A DNA stretch of 64,000 nucleotides. It comes from an uncultured Bacilli bacterium. GTDB taxonomy: Bacteria > Bacillota_I > Bacilli_A > RF39 > UBA660. A model generated the notes under the pieces. It did not search any database, was not told where the DNA came from, and saw only the letters and a list, made by a program, of their open reading frames with translations. Below, one piece after another: positions 7,299 through 47,208 of this stretch. Numbering within the stretch: the first letter of the stretch is position 1; the number at the start of each line of letters is the position of its first letter. The stretch is taken from the NCBI GenBank assembly GCA_947631035.1, contig CANRJW010000002.1, forward strand, positions 3,233 through 67,232, given 5' to 3'. A program made the translations under genes and the position numbers.

Positions 7299-7321
7299 AA
7301 TATATACCCCACATCTATTTT

Positions 7322-13415: not shown

Positions 13416-13485
13416 TTATCCTGCTCCTTTAATTCTTATTCTATATTTATTATATCATATCTCAATTAAGAAATCAACTATATTT

Positions 13486-15150: not shown

Positions 15151-15182
15151 TCTTCACCTCTTGCTTATACCTAACCATTTAA

Positions 15183-15377: not shown

Positions 15378-15496
15378 TTAGGCTACCTTATAAAAATAAA
15401 CAGTATGGGTGAGATTAAATTATGCATCCTACTTCTATTGGATACTATAACATAAATTTCTAAGGTACCTTAAACATCTAAATTAAAAAGTTTTCT

Positions 15497-15886: not shown

Positions 15887-16068
15887 AGATCATCATAAAG
15901 GCCGTCGTCTTCCGGGTAATAGCATTCCTTGGGGAGGACAGTGTAGTGATAAGTGTGCTTGACAAAGTTTTTTGCGACTCTCTCCGCTTCCTCTATCACT
16001 GCGTCTTCATTAAGCATGTCCTCGTTCATACTTTTTGCTTCTTCCCAAATGTTTGGCATCATATGCAA
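15865..16068 (-). CDS. small acidic protein upstream of and overlapping the MazF-like gene (candidate cognate partner)
   Basis: 67 aa, acidic, with a 22-nt overlap onto the MazF-like start. Confidence 0.35.
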   Translation of the reverse strand: MHMMPNIWEEAKSMNEDMLNEDAVIEEAERVAKNFVKHTYHYTVLPKECYYPEDDGLYDDLWEGPLP

Positions 16069-16089
16069 CTCCTAATTTTACATACATTA

Positions 16090-16164
16090 TGGTGTGAGTG
16101 AGGAGACTTGAACTCCCGACTCCTTGATTAAAAGTCAAGTGCTCTACCACTGAGCTACACCCAC
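16090..16164 (-). tRNA. tRNA-Lys (anticodon TTT)
   Basis: Fold GTGGGTG..CTTGA-CTTTTAA-TCAAG..GGGAG-TTCAAGT-CTCCT..CACTCAC-A-CCA. Confidence 0.8.
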
Positions 16165-16231
16165 ATAAGATTTGACAGGGGCTGCCAGGACGGGTTGCAG
16201 TGCAGGGGGCGTCCTGACAGTTTGTCAAATT

Positions 16232-16314
16232 TGGTCACCGCGAAGGGATTTGAACCCTTACGATCTCTCACTGGATCCTAAATCCAGCGTGTCTGCCAGT
16301 TTCACCACGCGGCG
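16232..16314 (-). tRNA. tRNA-Leu (anticodon TAG), type II
   Basis: Fold CTGGA-TTTAGGA-TCCAG with a long variable arm and T-arm AAGGG-TTCAAAT-CCCTT; CCA is encoded. Confidence 0.7.
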
Positions 16315-16421
16315 ATATAGCATACATGACTTGCGGGGCGCAATCATATCTATTTTATCTGCGATCTCTGAATATTCAGCGCTCTTCGTTAAGCTACTCC
16401 GCCGACGTCATGCATGCTTAA

Positions 16422-16511
16422 TGGTGGAAGAGGAAGGAATTGAACCTCCTCGATGTCTGATCAGGACATCTCTGCACTTTTACAGATGCAGTATCAATCT
16501 GCGTCTCTCCC
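16422..16511 (-). tRNA. tRNA-like element, type-II-like, anticodon arm unresolved
   Basis: Acceptor GGGAGAG/CTCTTCC, T-arm GGAGG-TTCAATT-CCTTC and CCA are present, but the internal region (CTGCA-TCTGTAAAAG-TGCAG plus a GATGTC..GACATC hairpin) does not give a canonical 7-nt anticodon loop. Confidence 0.35.
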
Positions 16512-16514
16512 ATC

Positions 16515-16601
16515 TGGTGGGCCGGGATGGAGTTGCACCACCGGTGTTTCTGATGTAACGGATTTACAGTCCGCCCCAATCGCTTCTATGGATACCGACC
16601 C
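16515..16601 (-). tRNA. tRNA-Tyr (anticodon GTA), type II
   Basis: Fold GCGGA-CTGTAAA-TCCGT, acceptor GGGTCGG/CCGGCCC-A-CCA; the T-loop TGCAACT is unusual. Confidence 0.6.
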
Positions 16602-16726
16602 ATGAAAAAGAAAAATGACAGGGGCTGGGCTTGCACCAACTTGCGTTTCACGTCCTTACTCCCCCACTCCACTTTGGTGACTAGCCAGAATTGCACTGAC
16701 ATGGGAGCACCTATCAAATTTCCTGC

Positions 16727-16806
16727 TGGTGGCTGGGGGTGGACTTGAACCACCGACATACGGATTTTCAGTCCGTCGCTCTGACCAAAAACTGAGCTAT
16801 CCAGCC
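16727..16806 (-). tRNA. tRNA-Phe (anticodon GAA)
   Basis: Fold GCTC-AGTTTTTGGTCA-GAGC, ACGGA-CTGAAAA-TCCGT, GGTGG-TTCAAGT-CCACC, then CCA. Confidence 0.8.
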
Positions 16807-16862
16807 ATGTTGGCAATTTTCTATGTATCGCATCTCAGCCTGCCATGATACTTCACTTACGG

Positions 16863-16937
16863 TGGTCCGCCTGCCAGGATTTGAACCTGGAATAAAAGAT
16901 TAGAAGTCTCTTGTGATATCCATTTCACTACAAGCGG
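16863..16937 (-). tRNA. tRNA-Arg (anticodon TCT)
   Basis: Fold AGAGA-CTTCTAA-TCTTT, T-arm CCAGG-TTCAAAT-CCTGG, a C1:G72 acceptor, then CCA. Confidence 0.75.
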
Positions 16938-17085
16938 ATATTTATACACCTGACAGGATTCTTAGTACCTGCATCTCCTCCCCGTTTCCTCAGTGATAAG
17001 TTGAGTACTCAGGGGTGGGGTCCTCTTTAACGTTAAACGACAGGTGTTGAGATTTCACTAGGTTATCAAGCTAGCTACTTTCTCA

Positions 17086-17161
17086 TGGTACGGGGTGACA
17101 GACTTGAACTGTCGACTTCCTGCTTGTAAGGCAGGTGCTCTCCCAGCTGAGCTAACCCCGC
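17086..17161 (-). tRNA. tRNA-Val (anticodon TAC)
   Basis: Fold GCTC-AGCTGGGA-GAGC, CCTGC-CTTACAA-GCAGG, GACAG-TTCAAGT-CTGTC, then CCA. Confidence 0.8.
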
Positions 17162-17214
17162 ATGTGTTCGCTTCTCTTACTGTGGAAGCTTTGAAGGACA
17201 GGTTCGTTTTACAT

Positions 17215-17291
17215 TGGTGATGCCTATGCGGCTCGAACGCATAATCTTCAGCTTGAGAGGCTGACGTGTTATCCAGTTCCACTAAGGCACC
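17215..17291 (-). tRNA. tRNA-Glu (anticodon CTC)
   Basis: Fold TCAGC-CTCTCAA-GCTGA, ATGCG-TTCGAGC-CGCAT, acceptor GGTGCCT/AGGCATC-A-CCA. Confidence 0.6.
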
Positions 17292-17364
17292 TGGTTGGAG
17301 AGAAGAGAGTTGAACTCTTACCTGAGGAGCCACAATCCTCCGTGCTACCGTTACACCACAGACC
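17292..17364 (-). tRNA. tRNA-like element with a His-type (GTG) anticodon arm and an unpaired acceptor (possible pseudo-tRNA)
   Basis: Arm GAGGA-TTGTGGC-TCCTC and T-arm AAGAG-TTCAACT-CTCTT with CCA, but the 5' GGTCTGT cannot pair with the 3' CTCTCCA. Confidence 0.3.
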
Positions 17365-17400
17365 ACATATATAAATACAAGAAAGAAGTTTGGTTAATCT

Positions 17401-17607
17401 TTACTCAGCTACAGGCAATTCCCTTTCACTTTCAATACTATAAAGAATACCTTTATTGTTGTGTACGAGAATCCTGTGCATAGCTCTACGAGCAGAATGA
17501 ATGTCTTTGCCTTTATGCACAAGCCTGACTGTTTCATCCTTTCCATGCTCACCAATGGAGCCTCTAAGAATGGTAATAGTAAATTCAAACGACTTTCTTC
17601 TTAACAT
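17401..17607 (-). CDS. hypothetical small protein
   Basis: 68 aa ORF just downstream of the tRNA block. Confidence 0.35.
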   Translation of the reverse strand: MLRRKSFEFTITILRGSIGEHGKDETVRLVHKGKDIHSARRAMHRILVHNNKGILYSIESERELPVAE

Positions 17608-17703
17608 ATTTTACTTAAACACCCCTTCTTGTTTCCTCTATGAATATTATAGTATCAAAGAAAAAGTAAATCTACTAATCTCTGCAGTACTTCTTCAGTT
17701 AAT

Positions 17704-17958
17704 TTACTCGGTTACCCTTCTCTTCATTTCAGCAAAAGCAGCTTCAGCTAATTCATCGCCAAGAGCTCCCTTTACAATGCCTTCAAGAAGCTGAATATAT
17801 TCATCCTTCTCCCCTTCATACATTTCAGGTTCAGGACCTTTGTACCCTTCATAAGAGCAATTTGCGTAGCCCGAGCAGGGACCTGCGTAACGGTTTTTCT
17901 CATCCCGATCTGCAAATTGACAAGTCAAGCAACCACCATTCATATAACACTTATCCAT
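17704..17958 (-). CDS. hypothetical Cys-rich small protein
   Basis: 84 aa with CxxC, C...C..C and C.Y.G patterns. Confidence 0.4.
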   Translation of the reverse strand: MDKCYMNGGCLTCQFADRDEKNRYAGPCSGYANCSYEGYKGPEPEMYEGEKDEYIQLLEGIVKGALGDELAEAAFAEMKRRVTE

Positions 17959-17962
17959 ATAT

Positions 17963-18151
17963 TCACCTCACGTAAACTGTTAAGATATTTTTACCCATCG
18001 AATCAGTAGTGACACTTTCTACTTCGCTGTGTATGAATTCAGTAGGAATGTCCAGAACGGAGCTGCAGAGTGTCAGTGATCCTCCAGTCTTACCAATGAA
18101 GAATAATCGGCAGGACTTTTCGAGACCCTCCAGTAAATTCTCAACAAGCAT
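17963..18151 (-). CDS. hypothetical small protein
   Basis: 62 aa ORF. Confidence 0.3.
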   Translation of the reverse strand: MLVENLLEGLEKSCRLFFIGKTGGSLTLCSSVLDIPTEFIHSEVESVTTDSMGKNILTVYVR

Positions 18152-18273
18152 TATCTCACCTCAAATCATAACAGCAACACTGATAACAGGTTCACCATCT
18201 ACATCAATATCAGCCGCAAAGTCTATAACTTCGTTATCATCAATAACATCAAGAAGATCTTTGAATAGCATAT

Positions 18274-18501
18274 TTACCTCACCTGAATCCAATTATGAAT
18301 ATGGCAACCTGCAACGTTCGTTTCTTCGATCTCGGTCACGACTTCTTGAAAATCATCACCTGCGTAGTTGACGATCACCTCACTGTCGATTGCCTTATCA
18401 TCGTAGCTGACGATCTTGGCACCTGCGGTTTCGAGTAGTTCAAGTACTACCTGAAGGGATTCCTTGTAGTAATTTTCAACCTGAATCTTGTACTGTTTCA
18501 T
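18274..18501 (-). CDS. hypothetical small acidic protein
   Basis: 75 aa ORF. Confidence 0.4.
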   Translation of the reverse strand: MKQYKIQVENYYKESLQVVLELLETAGAKIVSYDDKAIDSEVIVNYAGDDFQEVVTEIEETNVAGCHIHNWIQVR

Positions 18502-18527
18502 CTTCTTACCTCACCCACATTTTCTAC

Positions 18528-18566
18528 ATTTATTATATAATAAAGGGGAAGAAGAATCAACTACTT
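18528..18566 (-). promoter_or_regulatory. promoter-module variant
   Basis: tattatataat...gaatcaactac; upstream of 18274..18501 and downstream of tRNA-Trp. Confidence 0.45.
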
Positions 18567-18589
18567 TCTGTAGTGAGATGAAAAATTTA

Positions 18590-18665
18590 TGGCAGGAGAG
18601 CAGGGATTCGAACCCCAGTCCACGGTTTTGGAGACCGTTATCCTAGACCACTAGACGACTCTCCT
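18590..18665 (-). tRNA. tRNA-Trp (anticodon CCA)
   Basis: Fold AGGAGAG..GTC-TAGTGGTCTAG-GAT..ACGGT-CTCCAAA-ACCGT..TTCGAAT..CTCTCCT-G-CCA. Confidence 0.75.
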
Positions 18666-19518
18666 ATTTAACAAATGTTCTTTTATTTGATCTTTTACTT
18701 TCTACAAAATGAGTTTTGATGTAAATCTCTCTATGAGCCTCATAATTTCTGTTATTATGGAAAGAACCAAAATCGGGAATTGCTTCATTAAGGGGAAGAC
18801 CACCTTCAAGATTCTTCATGTAGGGATGCTCATTAGATTCAATAAGAGGCCTACCATTGAGATTTATAAATTCTTCTATATCCATGTGATCTATTGGTTG
18901 CCCATCTATTATATAAATCATATCTGGGGTGTTTATCTTCTTACCAGCTTGATGATCAGCAGAAATAGTAATTGAGGATAATTGGGTTCTATTCTCATAT
19001 ACAAGATTCCAAATTATATCAAACCAATTAAAATCAAAAGAGCTTACCCTAGCGTAAATATCCTTACCTGAACCTCCTCTATATTTATCACTCATTCTAA
19101 CCCTTAAGAACTCTTGATTCATTCTATTATTTAATTCTTCCCACAATGCCTTACAAGTTGCAATATAATTATCATCAATATCATTTGCAGGTTTAGGATC
19201 AACTACTATAGATAATTCATTTAGGAATATTTTAAGAATATCTTTATCCATTCCAAATTTATGGGTGGCTTCAAAAGAATCATCCATACCAAGAACACCT
19301 CCAGCAAGGCATTCTAAACATTCCTTCATTAGGGGTTTAATATTTTGGTTTGAATGATCTAAAAACCAATTAAGAAACCATGGATCATTAAATAAATCCA
19401 CCATATTAGTAGCAAAGGATTCTTTTACATCATGTAGAATATAAGGATGAATGGATCTACATTCAAATATTTCACCATCGTTACGTACCATGTAAGGTGT
19501 TCTTTCTTTTAACCGCAT
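18664..19518 (-). CDS. hypothetical protein, paralog of 26851..27669
   Basis: Shared blocks TPYMVRNDGEIF vs TPYMLRNDGKVI, NQEFLRVR vs NQEFLRFR, and RVSSFDFNWFD vs RVSSKGFDWSD. Confidence 0.5.
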   Translation of the reverse strand: MRLKERTPYMVRNDGEIFECRSIHPYILHDVKESFATNMVDLFNDPWFLNWFLDHSNQNIKPLMKECLECLAGGVLGMDDSFEATHKFGMDKDILKIFLNELSIVVDPKPANDIDDNYIATCKALWEELNNRMNQEFLRVRMSDKYRGGSGKDIYARVSSFDFNWFDIIWNLVYENRTQLSSITISADHQAGKKINTPDMIYIIDGQPIDHMDIEEFINLNGRPLIESNEHPYMKNLEGGLPLNEAIPDFGSFHNNRNYEAHREIYIKTHFVESKRSNKRTFVK

Positions 19519-19532
19519 TTATATTCTCCTAT

Positions 19533-19579
19533 AAGATAAAAATGAGAGGCCCCATATGCAGAAACACACGAAGCCTCTC
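19533..19579 (-). terminator. rho-independent terminator closing the tRNA operon
   Basis: 7-bp stem GAGAGGC/GCCTCTC followed on the minus strand by ATTTTTAT, placed between the tRNA block and the 284-aa gene. Confidence 0.55.
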
Positions 19580-19852
19580 TTGGATAAAGAAATATGGAAA
19601 GAATTCGGAAAAATCTACATCAATTAACTATATAGAGATTATTCAGTTTTCTATAATGTTTATACCAAAACTTAAAGTGTTTCATAAATAATCTCCTAAG
19701 GTTGATGTACAACTAATTTAGCAATAGTTCTGCTTTCTTTTTGATCAGAAGAAGCAGAAAGAAACTGATCGGTTAAAACGGACCGATGTTCCGCAACAAG
19801 CTGAGTTACGAGGGTGTCGTGCCGTACAACTTGTTAAGGTAGTTGTCAACCA

Positions 19853-19938
19853 TGGTCGGGGCAGTGGGACTTGAACCCACACGTCTTAAAGACCACGGAT
19901 TTTAAGTCCGTTCCGTCTGCCAATTCCAGCATACCCCG
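19853..19938 (-). tRNA. tRNA-Leu (anticodon TAA), type II
   Basis: Fold ACGGA-CTTAAAA-TCCGT, variable arm GTCTT..AAGAC, T-arm GTGGG-TTCAAGT-CCCAC, acceptor CGGGGTA/TGCCCCG-A-CCA. Confidence 0.7.
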
Positions 19939-20029
19939 ATATTGAAGCCCTTCGCTCCTGTAGGTCTGCCAGGACCATCATTTGCTAGGCTTCTCAGCAG
20001 TTCAATTTCTCTTCTGGCAAAGGGTGCTG

Positions 20030-20102
20030 CACATCCCTGTGGGATTCGAACCCAGACCTCCACCCCGCTTGGGTGGTACTCTACCCTTTAAGCTACGGGA
20101 TT
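20030..20102 (-). tRNA. tRNA-like element (canonical GGGTTCGAATCCC T-arm, atypical anticodon and acceptor)
   Basis: D-arm-like TAGCTTAAAGGGTAGAG and a CCACC-CAAGCGG-GGTGG hairpin lacking U33; the acceptor pairing is only partial. Confidence 0.3.
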
Positions 20103-20293
20103 ATAAAAATTTATAGGCTGTTTATCTCATTCCATTTACTACTGCTTCTCTAATCTAAATATTACTAAATGTCAGGTTGTACCTCTTGGCTATCTTGAAC
20201 CTGTTCATATTCAGCTTCGTAGCACCTACAAAGTTATTCTTTATATCTCTATTTTATTTTTTAACCAAAAGAGATATTTGAGAAAAACATTAC

Positions 20294-20370
20294 TGGTGGT
20301 CCACCTCGGGCTCGAACCGAGAACCGGCTGTTTATGAGACAGCTGCTCTAACCTATTGCGCTAATGGACC
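20294..20370 (-). tRNA. tRNA-Met (anticodon CAT), elongator type, or lysidine-modified Ile
   Basis: Fold GCTGT-CTCATAA-ACAGC, CTCGG-TTCGAGC-CCGAG, acceptor GGTCCAT/GTGGACC-A-CCA; no initiator hallmarks. Confidence 0.75.
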
Positions 20371-20374
20371 ATAA

Positions 20375-20463
20375 TGGACGGTGAAGGACTTGAACCTCCG
20401 GCGACCAGCGATTGCAGATGTTACTCATACAACCTCCCGCTCTACCAACTAAGCTAACCGCCC
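20375..20463 (-). tRNA. tRNA-like element of 89 nt with no canonical anticodon arm (intron-containing or degenerate); CCA not encoded
   Basis: Good acceptor GGGCGGT/ACCGTCC, D-arm GCTT-AGTTGGTA-GAGC and T-arm GGAGG-TTCAAGT-CCTTC, but the 38-nt interior (GGAGGTTGTATGAGTAACATCTGCAATCGCTGGTCGCC) gives no 5-bp stem with a 7-nt loop. Confidence 0.35.
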
Positions 20464-20569
20464 ATAAATACTAATGCATGTTAGTAAAGAATTTTGTAAG
20501 AAGTACTTTTAGCTCACAGATTGTGATTGTCAATTTCCACCACGTGAAGGTAGTACCTCATCGGAAATC

Positions 20570-20640
20570 TACAGGGTGGAGGAGTCGAACCCCAATCGCC
20601 GGATATAAGCCGGGTGCAACGACCGCATCACCTACCCTGC
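20570..20640 (-). tRNA. tRNA-Ile (anticodon TAT); CCA not encoded
   Basis: Acceptor GCAGGGT/ACCCTGT with a G1.U72 pair, anticodon arm CCGG-CTTATAT-CCGG, T-loop TTCGACT. Confidence 0.55.
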
Positions 20641-24062: not shown

Positions 24063-25001
24063 TTAAATACAAAAAGCAGGAGCCACACCGCCGTAGCTGT
24101 TAACGTTGCTGCTGCCAGTGCTGTTGATGGTAGCGTTGCCATCGATGCCAACGCCACACCAGTTGTAAGAGACATTCAGCCGAGGAGAACGGAGCCAGTA
24201 ATAGTTGCCACTTGATTCTCCATAATATTTCTTGACGCGCCTCGTGCTTGTTCCTGAACCTATACCGGAGTAGTAGGAATACGCGGTACCCTCAACCGGC
24301 CCATCAGAAGGAGACGTACCAACTCCAATTTCTGTTGCAGAAAGAAGGAACAGTTTTTGACTAACGTTATAGTTTCCTTCATCTACACTTCCACCACTAC
24401 CAATTGATCGTTGTTTAACCCAACAAGGCTTTCTGACAAGTTTTATTCCATCCTGGAGTGCCGGAGGCAATGATGCAAAAATATCCTGTAACGTAGATTG
24501 CAAGGTAACAGCAAGAGGAAATCCTTGCATGTTAGAAGGGAAATAGATATTCGAAGAACTATCATATTCTTTGTAATCAAAGGGCAGGCCAAGTGGGGAT
24601 GTTCCAATTATGTTTTCAAACTCCCATGTGGTCTTTGCTTTTGTTGTACTTGAACCTGACTGATCTGCCAGATCATCATGACTTGTTCCTATAAGTCTAA
24701 TCTTATAGTCGCGTCCATTAATACATCTTTTAATAGTTGCTTCTGTTCCGATTGAGATGTAGCTACCAGCTTCGCATTTTTCTATAAACTCTTCTATGCT
24801 TAAATTAGTACTACCAATTACTACACGCTGCTCTTCGCCGATAGGGCGAGCAATTTTTAACGAAGTGCCATTCACACCGCCTACATAGAGTCTATTCGTG
24901 TCAGCTTCATAAAATGGTTGACCTGGGAGTAAGCTTTCATTGCTTGCTTTTCTTTTATCTGAATTACCTCTGAGAAATTGTATTGAACCATTTCCTGCCA
25001 T
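24063..25001 (-). CDS. tail-fibre/receptor-binding-like protein, paralog family member 2
   Basis: N-terminus MAGNGSIQFLRGN...QPFYEADTNRLYVGG is conserved with 7425..8201 and 37868..38653; the C-terminus is Gly/Ser-rich. Confidence 0.5.
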   Translation of the reverse strand: MAGNGSIQFLRGNSDKRKASNESLLPGQPFYEADTNRLYVGGVNGTSLKIARPIGEEQRVVIGSTNLSIEEFIEKCEAGSYISIGTEATIKRCINGRDYKIRLIGTSHDDLADQSGSSTTKAKTTWEFENIIGTSPLGLPFDYKEYDSSSNIYFPSNMQGFPLAVTLQSTLQDIFASLPPALQDGIKLVRKPCWVKQRSIGSGGSVDEGNYNVSQKLFLLSATEIGVGTSPSDGPVEGTAYSYYSGIGSGTSTRRVKKYYGESSGNYYWLRSPRLNVSYNWCGVGIDGNATINSTGSSNVNSYGGVAPAFCI

Positions 25002-25157
25002 TAAATAACCTCCCTTGAGAGGTTCTCGAGGGAGGTGAGGTTAGTTAAAAATTGCGCCCCCCCCCCCATAAAAACTAAAGTTTTTCATGTGAGAGAAGAC
25101 TCCTTTTTTTTTTATTTTTATTTTTTGATATTTTTACCTATGTAATTTAGCTAAGCT

Positions 25158-25533: not shown

Positions 25534-26556
25534 TTAATTCATTTCCAGGCTCATCTTGTTACACTTGATGAGCAGTTTTTCGATATCATTGAAATAAGGC
25601 TTGTCAGGGAGCTTAGTTGTAGCCTCTGCTTCTCTGACTTTTGCTTTTAACTCATCAATCATAACATATAAATCAGGGCTGATTTCACCTTCAGTAGACA
25701 TATACTTACCGTTGCGCACAGACATTAGAAAATCTTTATCTTTCTCTCTATACGTAACTACTTCACCATCTTTAAGAAGATCATAGCACATTAAGAGAAG
25801 ACGAAGAAGATGCATAATATGCTTATTAAGCTTCATATCTTCTTTATTGTTTCTGTGCCCGATATGCTTGTAAGTCTTGATAATATTATTCATCTCTTCC
25901 CACATCATTTTATAATCACGAAGTGGATAATGTTTGAAATTACAATCCATGAAGATTTCAGTTTCCATATCTTCATTTACTGCAGTATCAGCATAAAGAT
26001 GAATATCATTTTCTCCAAATGGATGGTACTTCTCATGGAATGTATTCATTGCACTGTTGATGGAATTGAGAATATGTTCTTCCTGTTTGGGTTGAGATAA
26101 TTTTTCTCTACATACATAATTCTCAAGACGTGCAAGTTGAGCTGAAGCAAACCCAAAGAACTTACCTACTGCTCTCTTAGATAAGAACAAATGTCTGTTA
26201 GCAAGAATTTCTTTACCAATGTCGTTTAGATAAATGTAATGTTCAGGTTTGCATCCAAGGATTTCAAGAGTGTTGGGATTATTTTCAGTAAGAAGCTCAA
26301 ACATTCTGGAAATTGAATAAATAGTAGTATCTGTTTCTTTTTCTACTACCTGTTCAAATCTATGAAGCCCGAAAATTTCATCAGAACTGTGTACAGCAAT
26401 ACCTCTCACATCAACATCAGATGTGGGAGTAGAAAGACCATACGCATGGCTTCCACCTAAAGTGAGAAGACAAATTCTATTGCCTAGGTGAGGTTCAGTT
26501 CTTAAAAAATCATATGCAGGTGTTTTAAGGCTTTCTTTAATTTCCTGAATTGTCAT
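25534..26556 (-). CDS. Pol-beta-superfamily nucleotidyltransferase (minimal NTase fold with a helical C-terminal domain)
   Basis: LTLGGSHAYGLSTPTSDVDVRGIAV matches the hG[GS]x9-13Dh[DE]h motif; 340 aa. Confidence 0.55.
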   Translation of the reverse strand: MTIQEIKESLKTPAYDFLRTEPHLGNRICLLTLGGSHAYGLSTPTSDVDVRGIAVHSSDEIFGLHRFEQVVEKETDTTIYSISRMFELLTENNPNTLEILGCKPEHYIYLNDIGKEILANRHLFLSKRAVGKFFGFASAQLARLENYVCREKLSQPKQEEHILNSINSAMNTFHEKYHPFGENDIHLYADTAVNEDMETEIFMDCNFKHYPLRDYKMMWEEMNNIIKTYKHIGHRNNKEDMKLNKHIMHLLRLLLMCYDLLKDGEVVTYREKDKDFLMSVRNGKYMSTEGEISPDLYVMIDELKAKVREAEATTKLPDKPYFNDIEKLLIKCNKMSLEMN

Positions 26557-37867: not shown

Positions 37868-38653
37868 TTACTTAAGTGTAAAGCAAAAAATCACACCATG
37901 GGGATAGCTCGCGTCGCCCCCAGATAAACTACCATTGTAGTCTAAATAACACCAATCTAAATTCGATGTATGCCTGTTTCTTATCCAAGAATTAACGCTG
38001 CTTTTAAGTCTGGGATTAGCTTGAATTGTAGAGGTTTCATCTCCTTCCAATAACCACCTGTAGTATACAAATTGGAAAATTGAATTACTATCTTTAACTA
38101 GCCAGGAAGGAAACGTTGCGTTATCTTTCCCCCAGATCTCTTCTGCTGAAGGTACCCAAAGTTTGCAGGAAATTCCTGCATCACCATCACCTGAGGACTT
38201 AGTCACACTGGTGATTTTATCACTTAAATACTTGGGAAACAGGTCAAGAACATCGCTGTTCAGTATTTTACACAGGTCTGTTGCTCCCCAGGTTGTGGTT
38301 AGAGAATCTGACATTTGAAGCGTGCCTAACCATGAGACTTGCCATGTGGTTCCACTGCTATAACTAAGGTCAACGCAAAGTGCGGGAAGAACACGTCCAT
38401 CCTTTAACTCTATAAGTGCACGATCTCCAACCCTTATAACCGTCCCTCCACCGCTTCCTGCATTTTCCCAGTACGTTTGAATGTTAGGACCAATAGGAGT
38501 CGCTGCATTTATGACCGTATTGCCAGCACCGCCTATATATAAATTATTGTTTTGCATGTCATAATAGGGTTGACCGGGAATCAGTGTAGCATTACTACTA
38601 TTCCCGCTACCCCTTAAAAACTGTATTGAATTATTTCCTGCCATTAAAAACAT
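37868..38653 (-). CDS. tail-fibre/receptor-binding-like protein, paralog family member 3
   Basis: MAGNNSIQFLRGSG...QPYYDMQNNNLYIGG is conserved with the other two members; the TTTGCTAAATT motif lies upstream. Confidence 0.5.
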   Translation of the reverse strand: MFLMAGNNSIQFLRGSGNSSNATLIPGQPYYDMQNNNLYIGGAGNTVINAATPIGPNIQTYWENAGSGGGTVIRVGDRALIELKDGRVLPALCVDLSYSSGTTWQVSWLGTLQMSDSLTTTWGATDLCKILNSDVLDLFPKYLSDKITSVTKSSGDGDAGISCKLWVPSAEEIWGKDNATFPSWLVKDSNSIFQFVYYRWLLEGDETSTIQANPRLKSSVNSWIRNRHTSNLDWCYLDYNGSLSGGDASYPHGVIFCFTLK

Positions 38654-38693
38654 CCCTTTGTATGTAAGATTACATACAATTTAGCAAACATCT

Positions 38694-39379: not shown

Positions 39380-39805
39380 TTAGAAGTTGTAGTCGAAGTA
39401 CTCGCGGCGGCCGGCCGTGACCTTCTTACCAAGGTACATGAAAGCACCTTCTTTCTTGCTCCACCGCACTGTAAGAACACTGCCGTTCGGATCTCTCTCG
39501 TAGTTATATTCCAAGTCTTCGTTATTAGTACAGCAGGCACCGAAACCACCAGGAACAAATTCTGGCTTACAGCCCTTCTTAAGCGCTGCCTTATCCCGCT
39601 GAAGCGTTAAGCTACACGGGGTCCTTTTAATAACGGTGTAAGCTTCAGCATCGGAGTAGTAATGAACAGTAACGCCATCGCCCACTTCTAGCCCCTGATA
39701 AAACTCAGCATAAATAGGTCTTTCTTGAGCAACCTTCTTATTGTAATCACAAGTCCAGGGAAGAGCTTCCAACCTAGCTTTTAATTCCTTTTCACTCATC
39801 TTCAT
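39380..39805 (-). CDS. hypothetical protein
   Basis: About 141 aa; start chosen at the Met preceded by GAGGT. Confidence 0.45.
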   Translation of the reverse strand: MKMSEKELKARLEALPWTCDYNKKVAQERPIYAEFYQGLEVGDGVTVHYYSDAEAYTVIKRTPCSLTLQRDKAALKKGCKPEFVPGGFGACCTNNEDLEYNYERDPNGSVLTVRWSKKEGAFMYLGKKVTAGRREYFDYNF

Positions 39806-39956
39806 ACTTAAATACCTCACACTTGATTCTTACTTATATTATATACGATATAGTAAAAAATAGCAACTAATATTAAATAGTAATTGAGGATTTTAATAAA
39901 AATTCAGTTTTTAGATAGCTAAATTTAATGGAAATAAAATTTAAGGGGTTTGTTTT

Positions 39957-40565
39957 ATGAAAGCATGCGAGGTGATGAGTTTACTTCACATAACTAGGCC
40001 CACTCTGTGTAAGTATCTTAAAGTAGGTTATATAAAAGCGACTAAGACGGCCACAGGTCAATATATTTATGATGATGATTCAGTATATGCTTTTATAGGT
40101 CAAAAGAAGCATAAAGAAAATAAGATAGTAGTTTCATATGCCAGGGTATCCACACAGAATCAAAAAGATCAACTAATAAGTCAAAATCAACGAATATATG
40201 AATCCTGCATATCAAGAGGGCTTAATCTAGACATGCAATTATCTGATATCAAGTCTGGACTATCTGAAAACAGGGAAGGATTGCAGAAACTGATCAGGCT
40301 GGTCATTGAAAATAAAGTTAAGTTGATAGTTATTGAGAATAAAGATAGGCTAGTTAGGTTTGGATATGAAATATTGGAATCTGTATTTAGGTATTTCGGT
40401 ACTTCAATTTTAGTGCTGAATGACTCCATCCAAAATAAATCATATGAACAAGAGTTAACCGATGACCTAATTTCAATTATTCATTATTTTTCTATGAAAT
40501 CTTATTCACATAGAAGAAAATTAAATAAAATAAGAAGAGAATTAGAGGAAAAAGAAGGAGACTAA
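39957..40565 (+). CDS. tnpA: IS607-family transposase TnpA (serine recombinase with an N-terminal MerR-like HTH)
   Basis: The HTH MSLLHITRPTLCKYLKVGYI is followed by the catalytic block VVSYARVSTQNQKDQL. One of only two plus-strand genes in the window. Confidence 0.8.
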   Translation: MKACEVMSLLHITRPTLCKYLKVGYIKATKTATGQYIYDDDSVYAFIGQKKHKENKIVVSYARVSTQNQKDQLISQNQRIYESCISRGLNLDMQLSDIKSGLSENREGLQKLIRLVIENKVKLIVIENKDRLVRFGYEILESVFRYFGTSILVLNDSIQNKSYEQELTDDLISIIHYFSMKSYSHRRKLNKIRRELEEKEGD

Positions 40566-40568
40566 GTA

Positions 40569-41960
40569 GTGGAAAATTTGATTACACTTAAAATCAAATA
40601 TTCATTATCAAGCAGTATAGATAGGGATACTCTACTCTCTTTTATAAAAAACTACAATAATGTTTATAGATTTACAGCTAATAGATTATTAGAAAATCCT
40701 AAACTAGGTACCAAAAGAATCACTGAACTGCAAAACAACTTGAATAATATTTTTATAGATTCTCACCTTAAGAACTCCTGCATATTTGATGCTAAAACAT
40801 TAATTAAGCAATCAGAACAGGGCGATAAAATAATATTTGGTGGCAAGCAGTTATTGAATAAAAGGAATAAACATCAAATATCTAATGAAGAATGGAAGCT
40901 TCAAAGATTGGTTCCTCTATGTAGTGTTGGAGAAGCAGATAAGAAGGCTAATAGGAAATTTACTATCTTATCCTCATCTCAAATATTATTCAAACCCAAC
41001 AAAAGCACTCACATTGTTCTTAACTTATGTAGTTTAAGAAAGAATTGGAAGTCTCAGTTGGAAAGACTTTCGTTACTGCAGAATCAAAAAGTATTACCTA
41101 TAACCTACAGATTAGATCTGGATTATATTTATATTACATATGATTGTAATCTCACATCCACGAGTAAGTCTAAGAGTAAAACACTGGATAGAATACTATC
41201 TATAGATATGAATCCAAACTATTTAGGATATGATATATGTGACTGGAGCGGTGAATATCCAAATAGAATAGTTAAATCTGAGGTGCTATCTCTTAAACCC
41301 TTAAATGATAAAGACAGTAGCTTAAAAAGTAAGAGCTTGAATAGCTCCTCAAAAGAGAGGGCATGTATTACAGACAAGAGAGAATATGAGGTAATTCAAT
41401 TAGCGCATCAGATAGTCAAGCAAACAATTCATTATGGGTGCGAACTAATTGCGATTGAAGACTTAGTTATTCTTCCCGGCAACCTAAACAAAGGAAAGAA
41501 ACTAAATAAATTATGCAATAATCAATGGTGTAGAGATAAGTTTGTACGAGTACTGGAAAAACTGTGCAAGCTAAGTAACATTAAATTATTAAAAATGCCT
41601 GCAAATTATTCAAGCTACACCGGTAATTTGTGTTATAGAAAATATAACTTACCTGATATGTGCTTATCAGCTCTTGAAATAGGTAGAAGAGGTTATGAAT
41701 TTAACCATCAATATCTATTAAAAGATAAAGATATAAAAAAGAATATAGTTTTAAACAACTCCCAAGAATTTGTATCTAATGCAAAACAGTCGTTGGAAGA
41801 ATTAGGGTTGCATTTAGGTATAGATTCAGTTGACTTAAAGCAAATATTCAAGGAAGTTAAAAACTCTAAATTGAGATATAGAGTTCAGCTAGATGAAAAT
41901 CAATGCTGTTTTAGGAAATTCTATAAAAAGAAATATATAGATTTATACAGGTTTGTATAG
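40569..41960 (+). CDS. tnpB: TnpB-like RuvC-fold protein (IS605/IS607 OrfB; OMEGA-type RNA-guided nuclease family)
   Basis: RuvC-I LSIDMNPNYLGY, RuvC-II IAIEDL, a degenerate zinc-finger region (YSSYTGNLC...) and RuvC-III-like PDMCLSALEIGRRG; sits 4 nt downstream of tnpA. Confidence 0.7.
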   Translation: MENLITLKIKYSLSSSIDRDTLLSFIKNYNNVYRFTANRLLENPKLGTKRITELQNNLNNIFIDSHLKNSCIFDAKTLIKQSEQGDKIIFGGKQLLNKRNKHQISNEEWKLQRLVPLCSVGEADKKANRKFTILSSSQILFKPNKSTHIVLNLCSLRKNWKSQLERLSLLQNQKVLPITYRLDLDYIYITYDCNLTSTSKSKSKTLDRILSIDMNPNYLGYDICDWSGEYPNRIVKSEVLSLKPLNDKDSSLKSKSLNSSSKERACITDKREYEVIQLAHQIVKQTIHYGCELIAIEDLVILPGNLNKGKKLNKLCNNQWCRDKFVRVLEKLCKLSNIKLLKMPANYSSYTGNLCYRKYNLPDMCLSALEIGRRGYEFNHQYLLKDKDIKKNIVLNNSQEFVSNAKQSLEELGLHLGIDSVDLKQIFKEVKNSKLRYRVQLDENQCCFRKFYKKKYIDLYRFV

Positions 41961-42018
41961 GTCTGAATAGAATTTACATCTTATATGCTCCTTTGATATT
42001 AGTATTTGTGTATTTTTC

Positions 42019-43122
42019 TTATGGTGTAAGTCCAGAATCAGGTCCGCTGCCGCCGTCCTGAATGGAATTGAAGTAGTCGTTGATGCCGCCGGAGAGGTCT
42101 CCGCCCATCGAACTGTCGCTGCCGAGACGATCCATCGCTTCCTGCTGCGCCTGATCGAAGCTGTCGCCATAGTACGTACTCCCGTCGTTGATGTTGCCGC
42201 TGTTATCGCCGCTGCTCCCACCGTTACCGCTGCCTGTCGGAGGCGGAGAGTACTTGGGCGGGGTATCGGGATCGGACGGAGCGTCATTGTCATTCTTCGG
42301 CCAATCCATATTGGGCACATAGAAGGACGGATTTTCCGCTTCTTCGACGCTGTCCTCGAACGCGAGGAAGACGGCCGAGACGGTGATGTTGCCCTGCACG
42401 TCAAGATCCTGCCTGTAGGCTTCGGTGACGCCGTCGGACCAACCGACGAAGATGTGCTCGCTGTCTCCGATCGCGAGGACGGCGGGCGCGTCTTCCCCTT
42501 CCGTGACGATGAGCTCCTGTGCGAGCGCGGGCTCTTCGGACCAATCGTCGGTGTACATGACGATCGAGCCGCCCTTATTCGCCGTGTAGGTCACGGTGTA
42601 CGTTCTCGGGATATATTCGCCCATGAGAAGTTCCGCGCCGCCGGGGATGACGTCCGCGACATAGAGCGAACCGACGGTCAACATCGAGGTGCCGAAGAAG
42701 ACGCCGACGCCGAAGGTGATGACGAGCGCCGCAGACACTGCGAGCTTGACGAGCATGTGATCGACCGAGCCGAGGGCCTTCATCGTGTCTTCCCTCTGCT
42801 TCATCGCGACGTAGGAAGCGTCGTTTTCGAGCTCGACCATCGTGAGCACACGCTCTTCGAGGCCGAGACGGTCGACGCGCTGAGCGATCGCTTTGGTCGT
42901 GGGACGGTAGAGCTTCAAATAAAGGAGCGGCGTCAGCCCCGCAAGAAGGGCCGCGAACACGCCGAGGCCGATCCAAAGCCCCGCCTTAAACCCTGCAAGC
43001 CAGCAGATAAGCACGGTGAGCGAAAGTGCGCCGAAGGCGATGCTTCCGCTGAGCAGAAATGCTTTCAAGATGCCTTCACGGGCGATCCGTGCACGGTACT
43101 TTTTAAAAACATTGTCAGCCAT
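42019..43122 (-). CDS. foreign-origin membrane protein (about 60% GC; three N-terminal TM helices, Gly/Ser/Asp-rich C-terminal tail)
   Basis: Strong compositional contrast with the rest of the window; both strands show the stop-free spurious ORFs typical of high-GC DNA. The phage-type TTGCTAAATT motif lies upstream at 43173-43182. Confidence 0.55.
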   Translation of the reverse strand: MADNVFKKYRARIAREGILKAFLLSGSIAFGALSLTVLICWLAGFKAGLWIGLGVFAALLAGLTPLLYLKLYRPTTKAIAQRVDRLGLEERVLTMVELENDASYVAMKQREDTMKALGSVDHMLVKLAVSAALVITFGVGVFFGTSMLTVGSLYVADVIPGGAELLMGEYIPRTYTVTYTANKGGSIVMYTDDWSEEPALAQELIVTEGEDAPAVLAIGDSEHIFVGWSDGVTEAYRQDLDVQGNITVSAVFLAFEDSVEEAENPSFYVPNMDWPKNDNDAPSDPDTPPKYSPPPTGSGNGGSSGDNSGNINDGSTYYGDSFDQAQQEAMDRLGSDSSMGGDLSGGINDYFNSIQDGGSGPDSGLTP

Positions 43123-43175
43123 TGTTGTTACCTCCTCACAAATTTTTTATGTTAAATAGGTAGTAGTCACATAAT

Positions 43176-43709
43176 TTAGCAATCATTTAGTATGTTCTTA
43201 TAAACCACATATTGCATAGAAACTGCATGAATATTCTCTTCTGTATCCTTTATATCCACTGTACGAGATGGTGTCTCATAGAGAAACATAAAGCCCTCAT
43301 CGAGATTATCTAAATTTCTAATGAAAGTATCTGCATTACCGTCAATATCAACCCTAGTAACAAAAGCATAATCACAGAAAGGAAGTAGAGTATTATAGAC
43401 CATCCCACCACCTATTACCATTGCTTTGTCTACAAGATCGTTTTTAGTAATATAGTCAGATAGTTCTTTTATATTTGTTACATGAACTACACTTTCCGGT
43501 AGTTTTTCATCTTCAGGTGCAATAACTATATTTAATCTATTCTTCAGAGGCTTACCGCCTGGCAGGGAATGTAAAGTATTTAACCCCATTATTACAGGTT
43601 TGTAAGATGTATTAAGAACAAAGCTTTGCATATCTTCAGGAATGTTGAAGAGAAGTTTTCCATTCTTTCCAATACCCCAATTCTTATCTACACAGACAAT
43701 TGCGTTCAT
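43176..43709 (-). CDS. folA: dihydrofolate reductase
   Basis: MNAIVCVDKNWGIGKNGKLLFNIPEDMQSF matches the DHFR N-terminal NADPH/folate-binding signature; 177 aa. Confidence 0.8.
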   Translation of the reverse strand: MNAIVCVDKNWGIGKNGKLLFNIPEDMQSFVLNTSYKPVIMGLNTLHSLPGGKPLKNRLNIVIAPEDEKLPESVVHVTNIKELSDYITKNDLVDKAMVIGGGMVYNTLLPFCDYAFVTRVDIDGNADTFIRNLDNLDEGFMFLYETPSRTVDIKDTEENIHAVSMQYVVYKNILNDC

Positions 43710-44357: not shown

Positions 44358-44643
44358 TACTTTCTCCCGCCTTTATCTCTACTGCTGTGATTTTAAGATC
44401 ATCATCTCTACCTGTTACCGGAATTAGGAGAGCTTGGATGCCTACGCTTCTTAACCACTCCTGCAATCCAGTCAAAGCATCTACAAAAGATTTTCTATCC
44501 ATGAGGTTTCCATCATCACCCTTTGCATTTACATAAAGAAGATAGCGTAAATCAGGGTCTAAACCCTCCAAGGCTTCTATCCTGATGTGAGAGATATCCA
44601 TAGTGGAGGGCTTTTCTATTTTTCTTTCAGATATTTCTTTCAT
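44350..44643 (-). CDS. hypothetical protein
   Basis: 97 aa ORF. Confidence 0.4.
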   Translation of the reverse strand: MKEISERKIEKPSTMDISHIRIEALEGLDPDLRYLLYVNAKGDDGNLMDRKSFVDALTGLQEWLRSVGIQALLIPVTGRDDDLKITAVEIKAGESNE

Positions 44644-44655
44644 ATTAGTTTCTCC

Positions 44656-45486
44656 TCAAATTGCAACCGGAATTTTATGCTCAAACTTGTTCGGCTCATA
44701 CCCTTCTAACTTAAAACTATCTACTGTAAAATCATAGAAATTTTTAATATCAGGATCTACAATAAGTTTGGGGGCAGGCTTGGGTTCGTTTTTAAGTACC
44801 TCTTCTGTTAAAGGAATATGCCTATCATAAATATGAGCATCAGCAATAACGTGCACTAATTCTCCAGGCACTAAACCACTTACTTGCGCCATCATAATGA
44901 GAAGAATAGAATATTGAACTACATTCCAGTTATTTGCTGTTAACATATCATTTGAACGTTGATTGAGGATACCATTCAATACATTCCCTGAAACATTAAA
45001 CGTCATGGAATATGCACATGGATATAATCCCATTTCATGCAAATCCTGAAAATTATAAATGTTAGTTAAGATTCTTCTACTTGCAGGGTTGTTTTTCAAA
45101 TCAAATAAGACTCTATCAACTTGATCAAACATTCCTTCTTTATACTGATGCTTAACACCAAGTTGATATCCATATGCTTTGCCTATTGAGCCACTTTCAT
45201 CTGCCCAGCTATCCCAAATATGAGATCCCAAGTCGTGAATGTTATTGGATTTCTTCTGCCAAATCCAAAGTAATTCATCTATGCAGGACTTAAAAGCTGT
45301 TCTTCTTAAGGTTAAAATAGGAAATTCTTCCTGTAAATTATATCTATTAACAATACCAAATTTCTTAACCGTGTGAGCCGGTGTACCATCATCCCAGCGG
45401 GGCCTTACCTCAAGGTTGGTATCCCAGGTTCCATTATCTATAATATCTCTGCAGTTCTTAATAAATATTTCATCTGCTTTACTCAT
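44656..45486 (-). CDS. thyA: thymidylate synthase (ThyA, folate-dependent)
   Basis: RRILTNIYNFQD..GLYPCAYSMTFNV contains the catalytic Cys of the PCH motif; the DAHIY block and overall ThyA architecture are present (276 aa). Confidence 0.9.
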   Translation of the reverse strand: MSKADEIFIKNCRDIIDNGTWDTNLEVRPRWDDGTPAHTVKKFGIVNRYNLQEEFPILTLRRTAFKSCIDELLWIWQKKSNNIHDLGSHIWDSWADESGSIGKAYGYQLGVKHQYKEGMFDQVDRVLFDLKNNPASRRILTNIYNFQDLHEMGLYPCAYSMTFNVSGNVLNGILNQRSNDMLTANNWNVVQYSILLIMMAQVSGLVPGELVHVIADAHIYDRHIPLTEEVLKNEPKPAPKLIVDPDIKNFYDFTVDSFKLEGYEPNKFEHKIPVAI

Positions 45487-46122: not shown

Positions 46123-47208
46123 TTATTCAAAGGGTACGAACACGTTAGCACCCTCACCTGTCATAACATCAGGCAACTGACCATCCCATGCTTCTAGGTA
46201 TTCAATATACTTCAAATAATCTGAAATAACTTTAATTTCCGCTTCTGTCTTGCCTTCAAAGTCAATTTCATAATTCACACCCACCTGGACAAGCTCGCCA
46301 CTTTCGTTTTCTTCCATAACAGGTGTTTCTTTGATAGTGAATCCAAGCATACGTGCAACTTCGACTGATTTTGCCTTAATTGCATCTGCTTCAGCCTTTG
46401 CTGCTAATAGCTGTGCCTGTGCATCACCCTCAGCTTTTGCAATTGCCGCTTCTGCTGCAAGCCTTGCAACTTCAAGTTCTTGTTCAGCTTGGATAATTGC
46501 TCTTTCTTTTTCGTACTCAGCTTGCAACTTCTTCTGCTCTGCAACCATCTTATCTTCAACGGTCTGTTCAAAAGTATCTGAAAAGTCAATATTTGAAAGA
46601 ACAACTGTAGTTACATCTACGTAATAACTTTCATCAATTGCTTCCTTAACAAACTGCTCCACCTCGGGGGAAATCTCAGCTCTCTTCTCAATAATTTCCA
46701 TTGCTGAATACTTGGAAAGAACCGACTTTGTTCTCTCAGCAACAACGCTTTCAATTCTATTTTCCAAAGCATCCAAATTACCGTATTGTGTTGCAATGTC
46801 GATAACCTTATCTTGCTGAATTTGGAACTGAACGGTCATTGCAATATCCATTGTCTGAGCATCTTTTGAATATGCTTGTGTGGTAATATCTGTATTCTGT
46901 ACCTTAGCATCATAATACTCGTACTTATCTGTCATCCAGAAATCAAAATAAGTACCTGCATTCCTTGTACCCTCAATTTCACCCATGTGCTTTACGACAG
47001 AAATCTCACCAGCTTCAACGGTGTGAAATGACCATGGAATACACAAAAACAGTACTGCAAATACTAGTGCAGTTGCGGCTCCTGCCCACTTACAAGCTGC
47101 TGCTCCACGGTCCCATTCACCGTCCATTACAGTACCTGCGATAAGTGCGGCAATACCGCCAAAGCACAAAACACCAAATATGATTCCTAAAGCTATTCTG
47201 AAAACCAT
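46123..47208 (-). CDS. SPFH/band-7 (prohibitin/HflK-like) membrane protein
   Basis: N-terminal TM, an SPFH core (VVKHMGEIEGTRNAGTYFDF...) and an Ala/Glu-rich coiled coil (AEQELEVARLAAEAAIAKAEGDAQAQLLAAKAEADA). Confidence 0.7.
   Translation of the reverse strand: MVFRIALGIIFGVLCFGGIAALIAGTVMDGEWDRGAAACKWAGAATALVFAVLFLCIPWSFHTVEAGEISVVKHMGEIEGTRNAGTYFDFWMTDKYEYYDAKVQNTDITTQAYSKDAQTMDIAMTVQFQIQQDKVIDIATQYGNLDALENRIESVVAERTKSVLSKYSAMEIIEKRAEISPEVEQFVKEAIDESYYVDVTTVVLSNIDFSDTFEQTVEDKMVAEQKKLQAEYEKERAIIQAEQELEVARLAAEAAIAKAEGDAQAQLLAAKAEADAIKAKSVEVARMLGFTIKETPVMEENESGELVQVGVNYEIDFEGKTEAEIKVISDYLKYIEYLEAWDGQLPDVMTGEGANVFVPFE

Follow-up and report, generated by a model that had tools for sequence, protein, structure and literature searches.

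How a gene of nearly 60% G+C came to stand in AT-rich phage DNA, next to an insertion sequence (IS) of the IS607 family, is the question raised by positions 42-43 kb of the 64-kb stretch of DNA analysed here (the window). The window belongs to a large, virulent-looking gut phage of about 37% GC and carries its arm for replication and nucleotide metabolism: it encodes SbcCD-like nucleases, a clamp loader, RtcB, an RNA ligase, a nucleotidyltransferase, thymidylate synthase, dihydrofolate reductase (DHFR), peptide deformylase and 14 tRNAs. The original prediction, made from the sequence of the window, was that the high-GC gene is foreign, encodes a membrane protein, was acquired with or through the IS and is wired to a phage-type upstream motif. 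The comparisons presented here trace the gene to gut Clostridia, point clearly to a very recent passage from bacterium to phage, and indicate that the IS was not its vehicle.

The composition of the region was measured at several scales. In 200-nt windows, the GC content rose from 0.27 at 41800-41999 to 0.54-0.63 within 42000-43099 and fell to 0.32-0.36 past 43100. In 1-kb bins the island was the sole bin at 0.60, the remaining bins having a mean of 0.369 (standard deviation 0.030, maximum 0.48). As the other local peaks above 0.5 mostly fell where the 14 tRNA genes lie (12.6-20.6 kb), this is the only protein-coding GC island of the window. The GC content at third codon positions (GC3) of the gene was 0.753, compared with a mean of 0.316 in 31 phage genes (range 0.22-0.41), and its codon usage correlated with that of the homologous bacterial operon with r=0.88, compared with r=0.20 for the phage. 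The profile is thus distinct, and the abrupt shift that had been predicted is confirmed by windowed GC, GC3 and codon usage alike. The long stop-free frames reported on both strands are also present (233 amino acids on the plus strand, 153 and 133 on the minus strand); they are spurious open reading frames (ORFs), an expected by-product of the high GC content. The limits first proposed for the island, 42019 to 43122 or 43175, are replaced by an exact span, set by identity to bacterial contigs. The features that define the captured gene are the following.

42019-43122, minus strand: ORF of 367 amino acids encoding a membrane protein with three transmembrane (TM) helices (ORF, homologs, AlphaFold2 (AF2) model, hydropathy); it is chimeric, with a bacterial body and an AT-rich end of eight codons.
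42044-43149, no strand assigned: block of 1,106 bp of bacterial DNA, 99.64% identical to contigs L001, L002 and L003 and 99.55% identical to contig L030.
43131-43137, minus strand: ribosome-binding site GAGGAGG, 8 nt 5' of the ATG, which arrived inside the bacterial block.
42019-42043, minus strand: AT-rich end of the ORF, A CCT GAT TCT GGA CTT ACA CCA TAA, encoding ..PDSGLTP*; homologous to the family tail and recoded in every codon.

A 374-amino-acid version of the protein is encoded on three Logan contigs (L001-L003) and on one ENA contig (L030). The window differs from L001-L003 at four positions in 1,106 nt and from L030 at five, and the identical tract ends exactly at 42044 and 43149. 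This tract, with a GC content of 0.594 compared with 0.368 for the phage, comprises 27 nt of 5' untranslated region (UTR), including the ribosome-binding site, and codons 1 to about 359 of the ORF. At three of the four sites where the phage differs from L001, L030 carries the phage base, so that 42130 (a synonymous C-to-T change) is the single phage-specific site and the phage allele falls inside the standing variation of the bacterial population.

The four bacterial contigs have a GC content of 0.58-0.59, and in L001 the gene lies directly downstream of a gene for a protein of more than 3,000 amino acids with BspA-type leucine-rich repeats (LRR) and Flg_new domains. Homologs at 51-60% identity were found in six species-level genome representatives, all of them metagenome-assembled genomes (MAGs) from rabbit gut named 'uncultured Clostridia bacterium'. 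Operon order was read wherever a locus extended far enough (L004, L014-L016 and L018, GC 0.56-0.59). All keep the same succession: giant LRR gene, gene of the 367-amino-acid family, MoxR (AAA_3), DUF58, BatA-like VWA and VWA. Because composition and synteny agree, the direction of transfer is from bacterium to phage, and the donor is identified by these comparisons as a gut Clostridia lineage of about 59% GC. Six bacterial contigs (L001-L003, L030, L017 and L019) end 0 to about 220 nt past the stop codon of the gene, near or just inside the gene for MoxR, which is highly conserved; these ends are likely to be assembly breaks at sequence common to co-occurring species.

The AT-rich 3' end of the phage ORF (ACCTGATTCTGGACTTACACCATAA) has another history. 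Identity to the donor allele stops 25 nt before the ORF stop codon. Among 120 homologs only P0002 ends in the same residues, PDSGLTP, at 7/7 positions. P0002 is an 82%-identical sister allele encoded on L004, from an ENA sample series that it has in common with the phage, and its tail reads CCC GAC TCC GGC CTC ACG CCC TGA. All seven sense codons differ between the two, at the third position only and always from C/G to A/T, and the stop codon is TAA in the phage and TGA in P0002. Eight changes in 24 nt, compared with one phage-specific change in 1,106 nt, make chance and recent mutation untenable, so that the tail must stem from a homolog of the gene that became adapted to AT-rich surroundings while purifying selection preserved its protein sequence. 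Past the stop codon, a weak resemblance over 15 nt was observed between AAAAATACA(C)AAATA and the P0002-type spacer upstream of MoxR. Searches with k-mers of the tail found none in IMG/VR, and the single match in JGI data was a chance 21-mer within an unrelated gene. At the other end of the block, bacterial GCAAAATTAT and phage GCTAAATTAT stand in the same register and match at 9/10 positions; the intervening 21 nt up to the block start are unrelated, and the match is a candidate for older upstream homology.

The succession DHFR, gene, IS607 is found unchanged in at least five ENA contigs of separate samples, among which L007 and L008 are 99.995-100% identical to the window, and three Logan contigs, made with a second assembler, cross the DHFR junction. 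No sequence that could cause a mis-join is shared by phage and bacterium at either junction. Since several assemblies reproduce both junctions, the block is not an assembly chimera. The Logan phage contig L013 stops at 42488, one base short of the L030 single-nucleotide polymorphism at 42487, a coincidence that hints at co-occurrence of phage and donor alleles in sample ERR10663746.

Comparison with related phages revealed where the gene was inserted. The landmarks of this site are:

43176-43709, minus strand: phage DHFR gene (Pfam DHFR_1, E=7e-30), upstream boundary of the slot.
39380-39820, minus strand: phage gene of 141/146 amino acids (ORF and relatives), downstream boundary of the slot.
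39838-39866, minus strand: sigma-70-like promoter TTGCTA-17-TATAAT before the 141-amino-acid gene; native copy of the element duplicated at 43177-43182, with TTGATT-17-TATAAT at the same place in L024.
43150-43186, minus strand: phage-type upstream segment, which by sequence comparison differs from the DHFR ends of L024 and L027 and holds TTGCTAAATT.

In the phage contig L024 (about 82% nucleotide identity) the site is empty: DHFR and the 141-amino-acid gene adjoin, separated by 57 nt, and neither the GC-rich gene nor the IS is present. This 57-nt gap contains TTGATT-17-TATAAT, with the -35 hexamer overlapping the DHFR stop codon as it does in the window. In L027 the same slot holds three unrelated AT-rich genes of 139, 190 and 102 amino acids (L027 1594-3033, compared with L024 9061-9119), bracketed by the direct repeats TTGATTTTATTTT and TTGATTCTTTTCT. 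The cargo of the window is likewise bracketed, by TTGCTAAATTAT (43182-43171) and TTGCTATTTTTT (39866-39855), two copies of the -35 region. The junction between DHFR and the 141-amino-acid gene can thus be described, from these alignments, as a variable cargo slot, a hot spot bracketed by promoter repeats.

The captured gene is absent from L024, L027, L032-L036, IMG/VR and 50,697 GenBank phage records. The idea of a core gene of the phage clade with similar GC was examined in this way: homologs are absent from the related phages and the closest alleles are bacterial. This bears out the original prediction of a foreign, compositionally unameliorated gene for a membrane protein. None of the further relatives of the 213- and 141-amino-acid genes (L028, L031-L036) has a homolog of the family in the slot, a megablast comparison of 39-46 kb with GenBank phages gave no match, and scans of IMG/VR with the 367-amino-acid protein and both flanking phage genes found no relatives. 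The 213-amino-acid neighbour protein had only five homologs in a collection of 5.8 billion proteins. Homologs of the 141-amino-acid gene also lie beside an integrase and repressor module in a contig of 47% GC, and in another contig that was binned to Christensenellales (L036 3534-6426; P0136). The gene therefore moves between phages of very different kinds.

The sequence TTGCTAAATT occurs five times in the window, always on the minus (coding) strand, compared with 0.64 occurrences expected; none of 100 shuffles reached five. One copy is intragenic; the other four precede start codons by 29-50 nt, and in two cases the gene that follows is a DUF6273 paralog. The site before the 261-amino-acid DUF6273 paralog is conserved, exactly in L027 and as TCGCTAAATTATGTGA in L024, where 14 nt are common with window 43167-43180. 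The claim that the captured gene and the fibre-like (DUF6273) paralogs carry the same upstream motif was therefore correct. Its recurrence and its conserved site mark TTGCTAAATT as a real, phage-native intergenic element, and it is probably a promoter element of the -35 type. The copy at the captured gene (43173-43182) overlaps the DHFR stop codon and appears to be a duplicate of the slot's own -35-like element. There a -35-like TTGCTA lies 50 nt upstream of the gene, and the best -10 sequence, TATTTA 18 nt downstream, is poor; the captured gene may be expressed from TTGCTAAATT, possibly in the late programme first suggested. The three other intergenic copies (38650-38687, 8212-8250 and 19695-19724) have a short inverted repeat within a few nucleotides, for example GTATGTAA-TC-TTACATAC at 38660-38677, and may form a composite promoter/stem-loop cassette.

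The proximity of the gene to the IS had suggested acquisition with or through the mobile element, and the element was therefore delimited.

39886-42010 (approximate ends), plus strand: IS607-family element with tnpA (39957-40565) and tnpB (40569-41960), convergent with the captured gene.

The intact TnpA matched the NCBIfam model transpos_IS607 (NF033518) with 156.4 bits, above the cut-off of 110, which places the element in the IS607 family; TIGR01766 gave a weak match only. In the phage collections searched, TnpB (463 amino acids) shared 44% identity over 100% of its length with its counterpart in ISCaje4, an element of Campylobacter phage CP220, and about 41% with multiple copies that Lak megaphages of Prevotella carry (GenBank phage collection). 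These relatives (L021-L023) thus belong to Campylobacter firehammerviruses and to Lak megaphages. The motif TTTACATCTTATATG at 41973-41987 is common with ISCaje4. In CP220 the annotated right end is 51 nt past the tnpB stop, and the motif TTTAYATCTTATAT stands at the same offset as in the window. An exact TnpB was found only in this phage; the ends were therefore placed by comparison with ISCaje4 and with L024 and L027. The right end would be at about 41988-42011, and the left end at about 39886, where homology to L024/L027 resumes. Rfam searches of 39-44 kb at E<=1 returned nothing, with no omega-RNA or IS605-orfB model match.

The stop codons of the captured gene and of tnpB are 58 nt apart, and the putative right end is some 10-30 nt from the former, well inside the distance of about 60 nt first estimated. 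The proposed acquisition through IS607 did not stand: the composition of the element is phage-like (GC 0.30, GC3 0.28), the relatives of its TnpB in the phage collection belong to Campylobacter and Lak phages, the donor contigs run 110 nt beyond the breakpoint without similarity to it, and about 30-55 nt of AT-rich DNA, homologous to the gene family, separate the bacterial block from its end. In addition, the gene begins beyond the IS end (no later than about 42011) and is convergent, an arrangement that does not fit a passenger gene. On these sequence data, IS607 is not the vehicle and would have inserted independently, just downstream of the stop codon. Breaks induced by TnpB were considered as a driver of gene conversion and set aside; the break-proximal tail was retained, and the geometry of extension does not fit.

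The 367-amino-acid protein has 436 homologs of 34-99% identity, mostly at 95-100% coverage (P0001, 99%; P0002, 82%); the few named ones are from Clostridia or Lachnospiraceae MAGs. Hydropathy placed TM helices at about 17-47, 45-69 and 122-151, and the AF2 model has helices at 2-43, 48-72 and 122-155 (mean pLDDT 78.8). Both support the three TM helices of the original prediction, at about 17-43, 48-70 and 122-152, with a helical cytoplasmic loop at 76-119. The C-terminal part consists of a beta domain (174-254), a linker (about 256-320) and two helices (321-355). The disordered tail described earlier is accepted for the linker, which is of low confidence in AF2 and rich in P, D, S, N and G, and not for 321-355, since the two helices are conserved in the family. 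In a 71-sequence alignment, the most conserved columns were P74...A116 in the cytoplasmic loop, F225, W228, D230 and R237 in the beta domain, and G314, Y318, G319 and Y350 near the C-terminus, the invariant or near-invariant columns being grouped in residues 74-116, 225-237 and 314-350. Full-length homology, three TM helices, the conserved cytoplasmic loop, the B-repeat domain and a C-terminal TYYGD...DYF.SI module are shared with the bacterial family (P0001-P0120). In the phage, the gene is not upstream of MoxR-DUF58-VWA and stands alone between DHFR and IS607.

Residues 175-250 gave a sub-threshold match to Pfam Flg_new (PF09479; E=0.005, 17.3 bits compared with a cut-off of 27), and many homologs have a precomputed match to Flg_new_2 (PF18998). 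Fold matches in BFVD had E values of 1e-4 to 1e-2 over about 83-150 alignment columns, and several were phage proteins named 'Bacterial repeat domain-containing'. The beta domain is therefore probably an extracellular domain that resembles the InlB B-repeat (Listeria-Bacteroides repeat). No match to the protein was found in NCBIfam, in PHROGs or, among models of known anti-phage defence and anti-defence proteins, in PADLOC, and searches of PDB by sequence and by Foldseek gave no significant match. With PADLOC, the bacterial operon gave weak matches only, to MoxR. The N-terminal module of TM helices and loop is outside any described Pfam or NCBIfam family, and the family has no characterised member.

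Several observations bear on the host of the phage. The 14 tRNA genes (12666-20640, minus strand) are Thr-TGT, Lys-TTT, Leu-TAG, Phe, Arg-TCT, Val-TAC, Glu-CTC, His, Trp, Leu-TAA, Ala-AGC, Met, Leu-GAG and Ile-TAT. Half of them (7/14) serve codons with A or U at the third position, such as ACA, AGA, GTA, TTA, ATA and CTA, which the phage uses often and the donor lineage rarely (fractions in phage and donor: ACA 0.41/0.11, AGA 0.54/0.17, GTA 0.41/0.10, TTA 0.26/0.03, ATA 0.25/0.03). An AT-rich phage growing in a host of higher GC would be expected to carry such a tRNA set. A Christensenellales MAG has an annotated homolog of the 141-amino-acid gene, and one and the same ENA/SRA sample series yielded the phage, its relatives and both bacterial alleles. 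The donor lineage, Clostridia of about 59% GC and possibly Christensenellales-like, is thus probably the phage host. The tRNA set is accompanied by genes for RtcB, for an RNA ligase and for a protein resembling tRNA nucleotidyltransferase (1550-2632, 8256-9392 and 25534-26556), a tRNA-repair toolkit that suggests a counter to host anticodon nucleases.

The explanation that we consider reasonably probable combines a recent capture from Clostridia, a history in two steps, an independent insertion of IS607 and a role in the envelope. The two steps are proposed because the tail encodes the C-terminus of the sister allele exactly, with every third position changed. In a first step, the phage lineage, or a module that entered the slot with a TTGCTA promoter, would already have carried an old, AT-adapted copy of the gene. 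In a second step, the allele of the host would have overwritten nearly all of that copy by recombination during infection, replacing all that lay between the AT-rich 5' UTR with the first codons and a point just short of the stop codon; the 5' UTR and first codons would be a good crossover site since they are least altered by amelioration. Within the slot, cargo would move by means of the direct repeats of the promoter -35 element, in a manner resembling the modular shuffling of the PeSL type. The protein would lie in the host membrane with its N-terminus inside, the conserved loop in the cytoplasm, and the B-repeat domain and tail outside. As it is 99% identical to the host protein and its partner genes are absent, the phage copy would add dosage and not a new activity, that is, an extra dose of an envelope component of the host MoxR operon. 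As the most conserved part of the protein is cytoplasmic, the loop is a plausible dock for MoxR or DUF58. The outcome may be that an envelope pathway is kept running during infection, or that the surface is remodelled or occluded, as in superinfection exclusion; both envelope maintenance and superinfection exclusion are put forward as phage roles with low confidence.

Several points weigh against this explanation. An AT-adapted full-length copy was found neither in related phage loci, IMG/VR and GenBank phages nor in a search of 5.8 billion proteins, so that the two-step history rests on 25 nt and on the weak 15-nt resemblance past the stop. Neither crossover is more than about 27 nt from an end of the homologous segment, which random placement in a diverged gene would not give. 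As the nearest sampled relative has an empty site, an older copy cannot have been clade-wide, and the block, with one phage-specific substitution, shows no sign of selection since it entered the phage; the gene may be a passenger carried only for a time. The -10 sequence that follows TTGCTA is poor, and no sequence like a terminator was seen between the stop codon of the captured gene and the IS. Phage and host would differ by 22 points of GC, an unusually wide gap. Apart from the B-repeat domain, searches of Pfam, NCBIfam, PADLOC, PHROGs, PDB and Foldseek offered no clue to function. The empty site, the lack of an AT-adapted homolog in the searches made, the single substitution and the junctions that hug the ORF ends also speak for a capture in one step by illegitimate recombination, in which the AT-rich end would come from another source (a chimeric allele, for example) and the gene would perhaps be a neutral, short-lived passenger. 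We hold this to be possible but rather unlikely. From its last seven codons to the stop, the ORF reproduces the P0002 tail without an amino-acid difference, and the sense codons have changed only synonymously, from C/G to A/T; the ratio of eight changes in 24 nt to one in 1,106 nt rules out chance and recent mutation; and the junction is in frame, in an intact ORF that has a ribosome-binding site and stands behind a phage promoter-like element.

A transfer mediated by IS607, in which the element would have moved from bacterium to phage and dragged the adjacent gene along by read-through of its right end or as part of a composite structure, would account for the 10-30 nt between the stop codon and the putative right end. 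It could also accommodate the four contigs with the donor allele, all of which end 0-64 nt from the gene, possibly at an adjoining donor repeat. This is very improbable in view of the phage-like GC and GC3 of the IS, unlike those of the donor, the TnpB relatives that the phage collection holds (41-44%, in Campylobacter and Lak phages) and the exact TnpB found in this phage only, the 110 nt of donor DNA without similarity to the IS, and the position of the gene outside the IS ends, beyond AT-rich DNA homologous to its family. A metagenomic chimera of bacterial and phage reads might be suspected from the low coverage (about 6x) of the ENA contigs and from the Logan phage contigs that stop inside the block, at 42488, 42559 and 42776. 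Such an artefact is extremely unlikely: both junctions recur across samples, the DHFR junction also with a second assembler; they share no sequence at which the assembly graph could mis-join; phage DNA is present on both sides of the block inside contigs of 33-79 kb; and the ORF runs on, in frame, into a homologous tail. Finally, a long-standing GC-rich core or accessory gene of the phage clade, for which the AT-adapted tail, as a hint of earlier residence, is the sole argument, is scarcely credible for a gene that is 99.6% identical to bacterial DNA, has the codon usage of the bacterial operon, is absent from L024, L027, L032-L036, GenBank phages and IMG/VR and has no PHROG match.

The favoured explanation, a recent capture with an older copy overwritten, can be compared with known systems. 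In T4-type phages, the cargo of hyperplastic regions is shuffled by promoter cassettes, called PeSL (PMC2839356, PMC4122927). As in PeSL and other morons, the captured gene is a single extra, inserted between replication and nucleotide-metabolism genes that adjoin in L024, with a composition unlike that of the surrounding genome; relatives are empty or have other cargo, and the cargo is bracketed by short promoter-element repeats, here and in L027. Unlike in PeSL, no stem-loop terminator is apparent in the repeat here, the -10 is poor, and the cargo is unameliorated bacterial DNA, not a phage ORFan. For the psbA and psbD genes of cyanophages, intragenic recombination between host and phage was deduced from patchy %G+C (PMC1484495). 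The captured gene is also host-derived in a lower-GC phage, and its ORF is likewise a mosaic of host-like and phage-adapted GC, the 99.6% bacterial block being followed by a tail of 25 nt, very short, in which all third positions are A/T. It differs in the extent of the phage-adapted part and in its distribution, as no homolog exists in L024, L027, L032-L036, GenBank phages or IMG/VR, whereas psbA is widespread in cyanophages and its role has been demonstrated.

The donor operon recalls the bifidobacterial PFNA cluster pkb2-fn3-aaa-atp-duf58-tgm, in which an FN3 surface protein precedes MoxR-DUF58 (PMC8430577). In MoxR-DUF58-VWA ('Bat'-like) operons of the donor type, the gene directly precedes MoxR (AAA_3), DUF58 and two VWA genes, and in both clusters a protein with an extracytoplasmic domain of the beta-sandwich type is encoded beside MoxR-DUF58; the phage took this one gene only, without MoxR, DUF58 and VWA. 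ISCaje4 of phage CP220 resembles the IS of the window in its serine-recombinase TnpA, its TnpB and the right-end motif after the tnpB stop; the TnpB proteins are only 44% identical, and the window element is a neighbour of the captured gene, not its carrier. In conclusion, the captured gene is a moron of host origin that occupies a hyperplastic slot, an event of a known kind, of which this case is exceptionally recent and well documented.

Further features of the window phage and L024 were noticed outside the slot. L024 encodes an N6/N4 DNA methyltransferase (6857-7597) between thymidylate synthase and a 97-amino-acid gene, which the window phage lacks at 44643-44656. A Band_7 protein gene present in the window (46123-47208) was not seen in L024. 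In L024, a fibre-like gene is preceded by a GC-rich element that contains a G8 run (10540-10600) and has a 73% match at window 24965-25119.

With donor allele, recipient, empty-site relative and both junctions in hand, this locus gives an unusually clean snapshot of gene flow from host to phage. The capture supplies a probable host lineage for an uncultured large phage, together with a recombination hot spot that has promoter repeats, and is a first hint that a phage may profit from an uncharacterised membrane protein of a MoxR operon. The recoded tail points to repeated exchange between host and phage; if it is what remains of an older, overwritten copy, allele exchange of the psbA type would also take place in anaerobic gut systems. 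A bolder proposal, which we regard as tentative and rather doubtful, is that the phage lineage keeps a membrane adaptor of the host MoxR operon over the long term and refreshes it periodically by gene conversion from the hosts that it infects, in the manner of cyanophages and psbA. If this is true, the MoxR-DUF58-VWA envelope system of gut Clostridia would matter for infection, by way of a receptor, exclusion or maintenance, and the locus would be a non-cyanobacterial case of ongoing allele exchange between host and phage across a 22-point GC gap.

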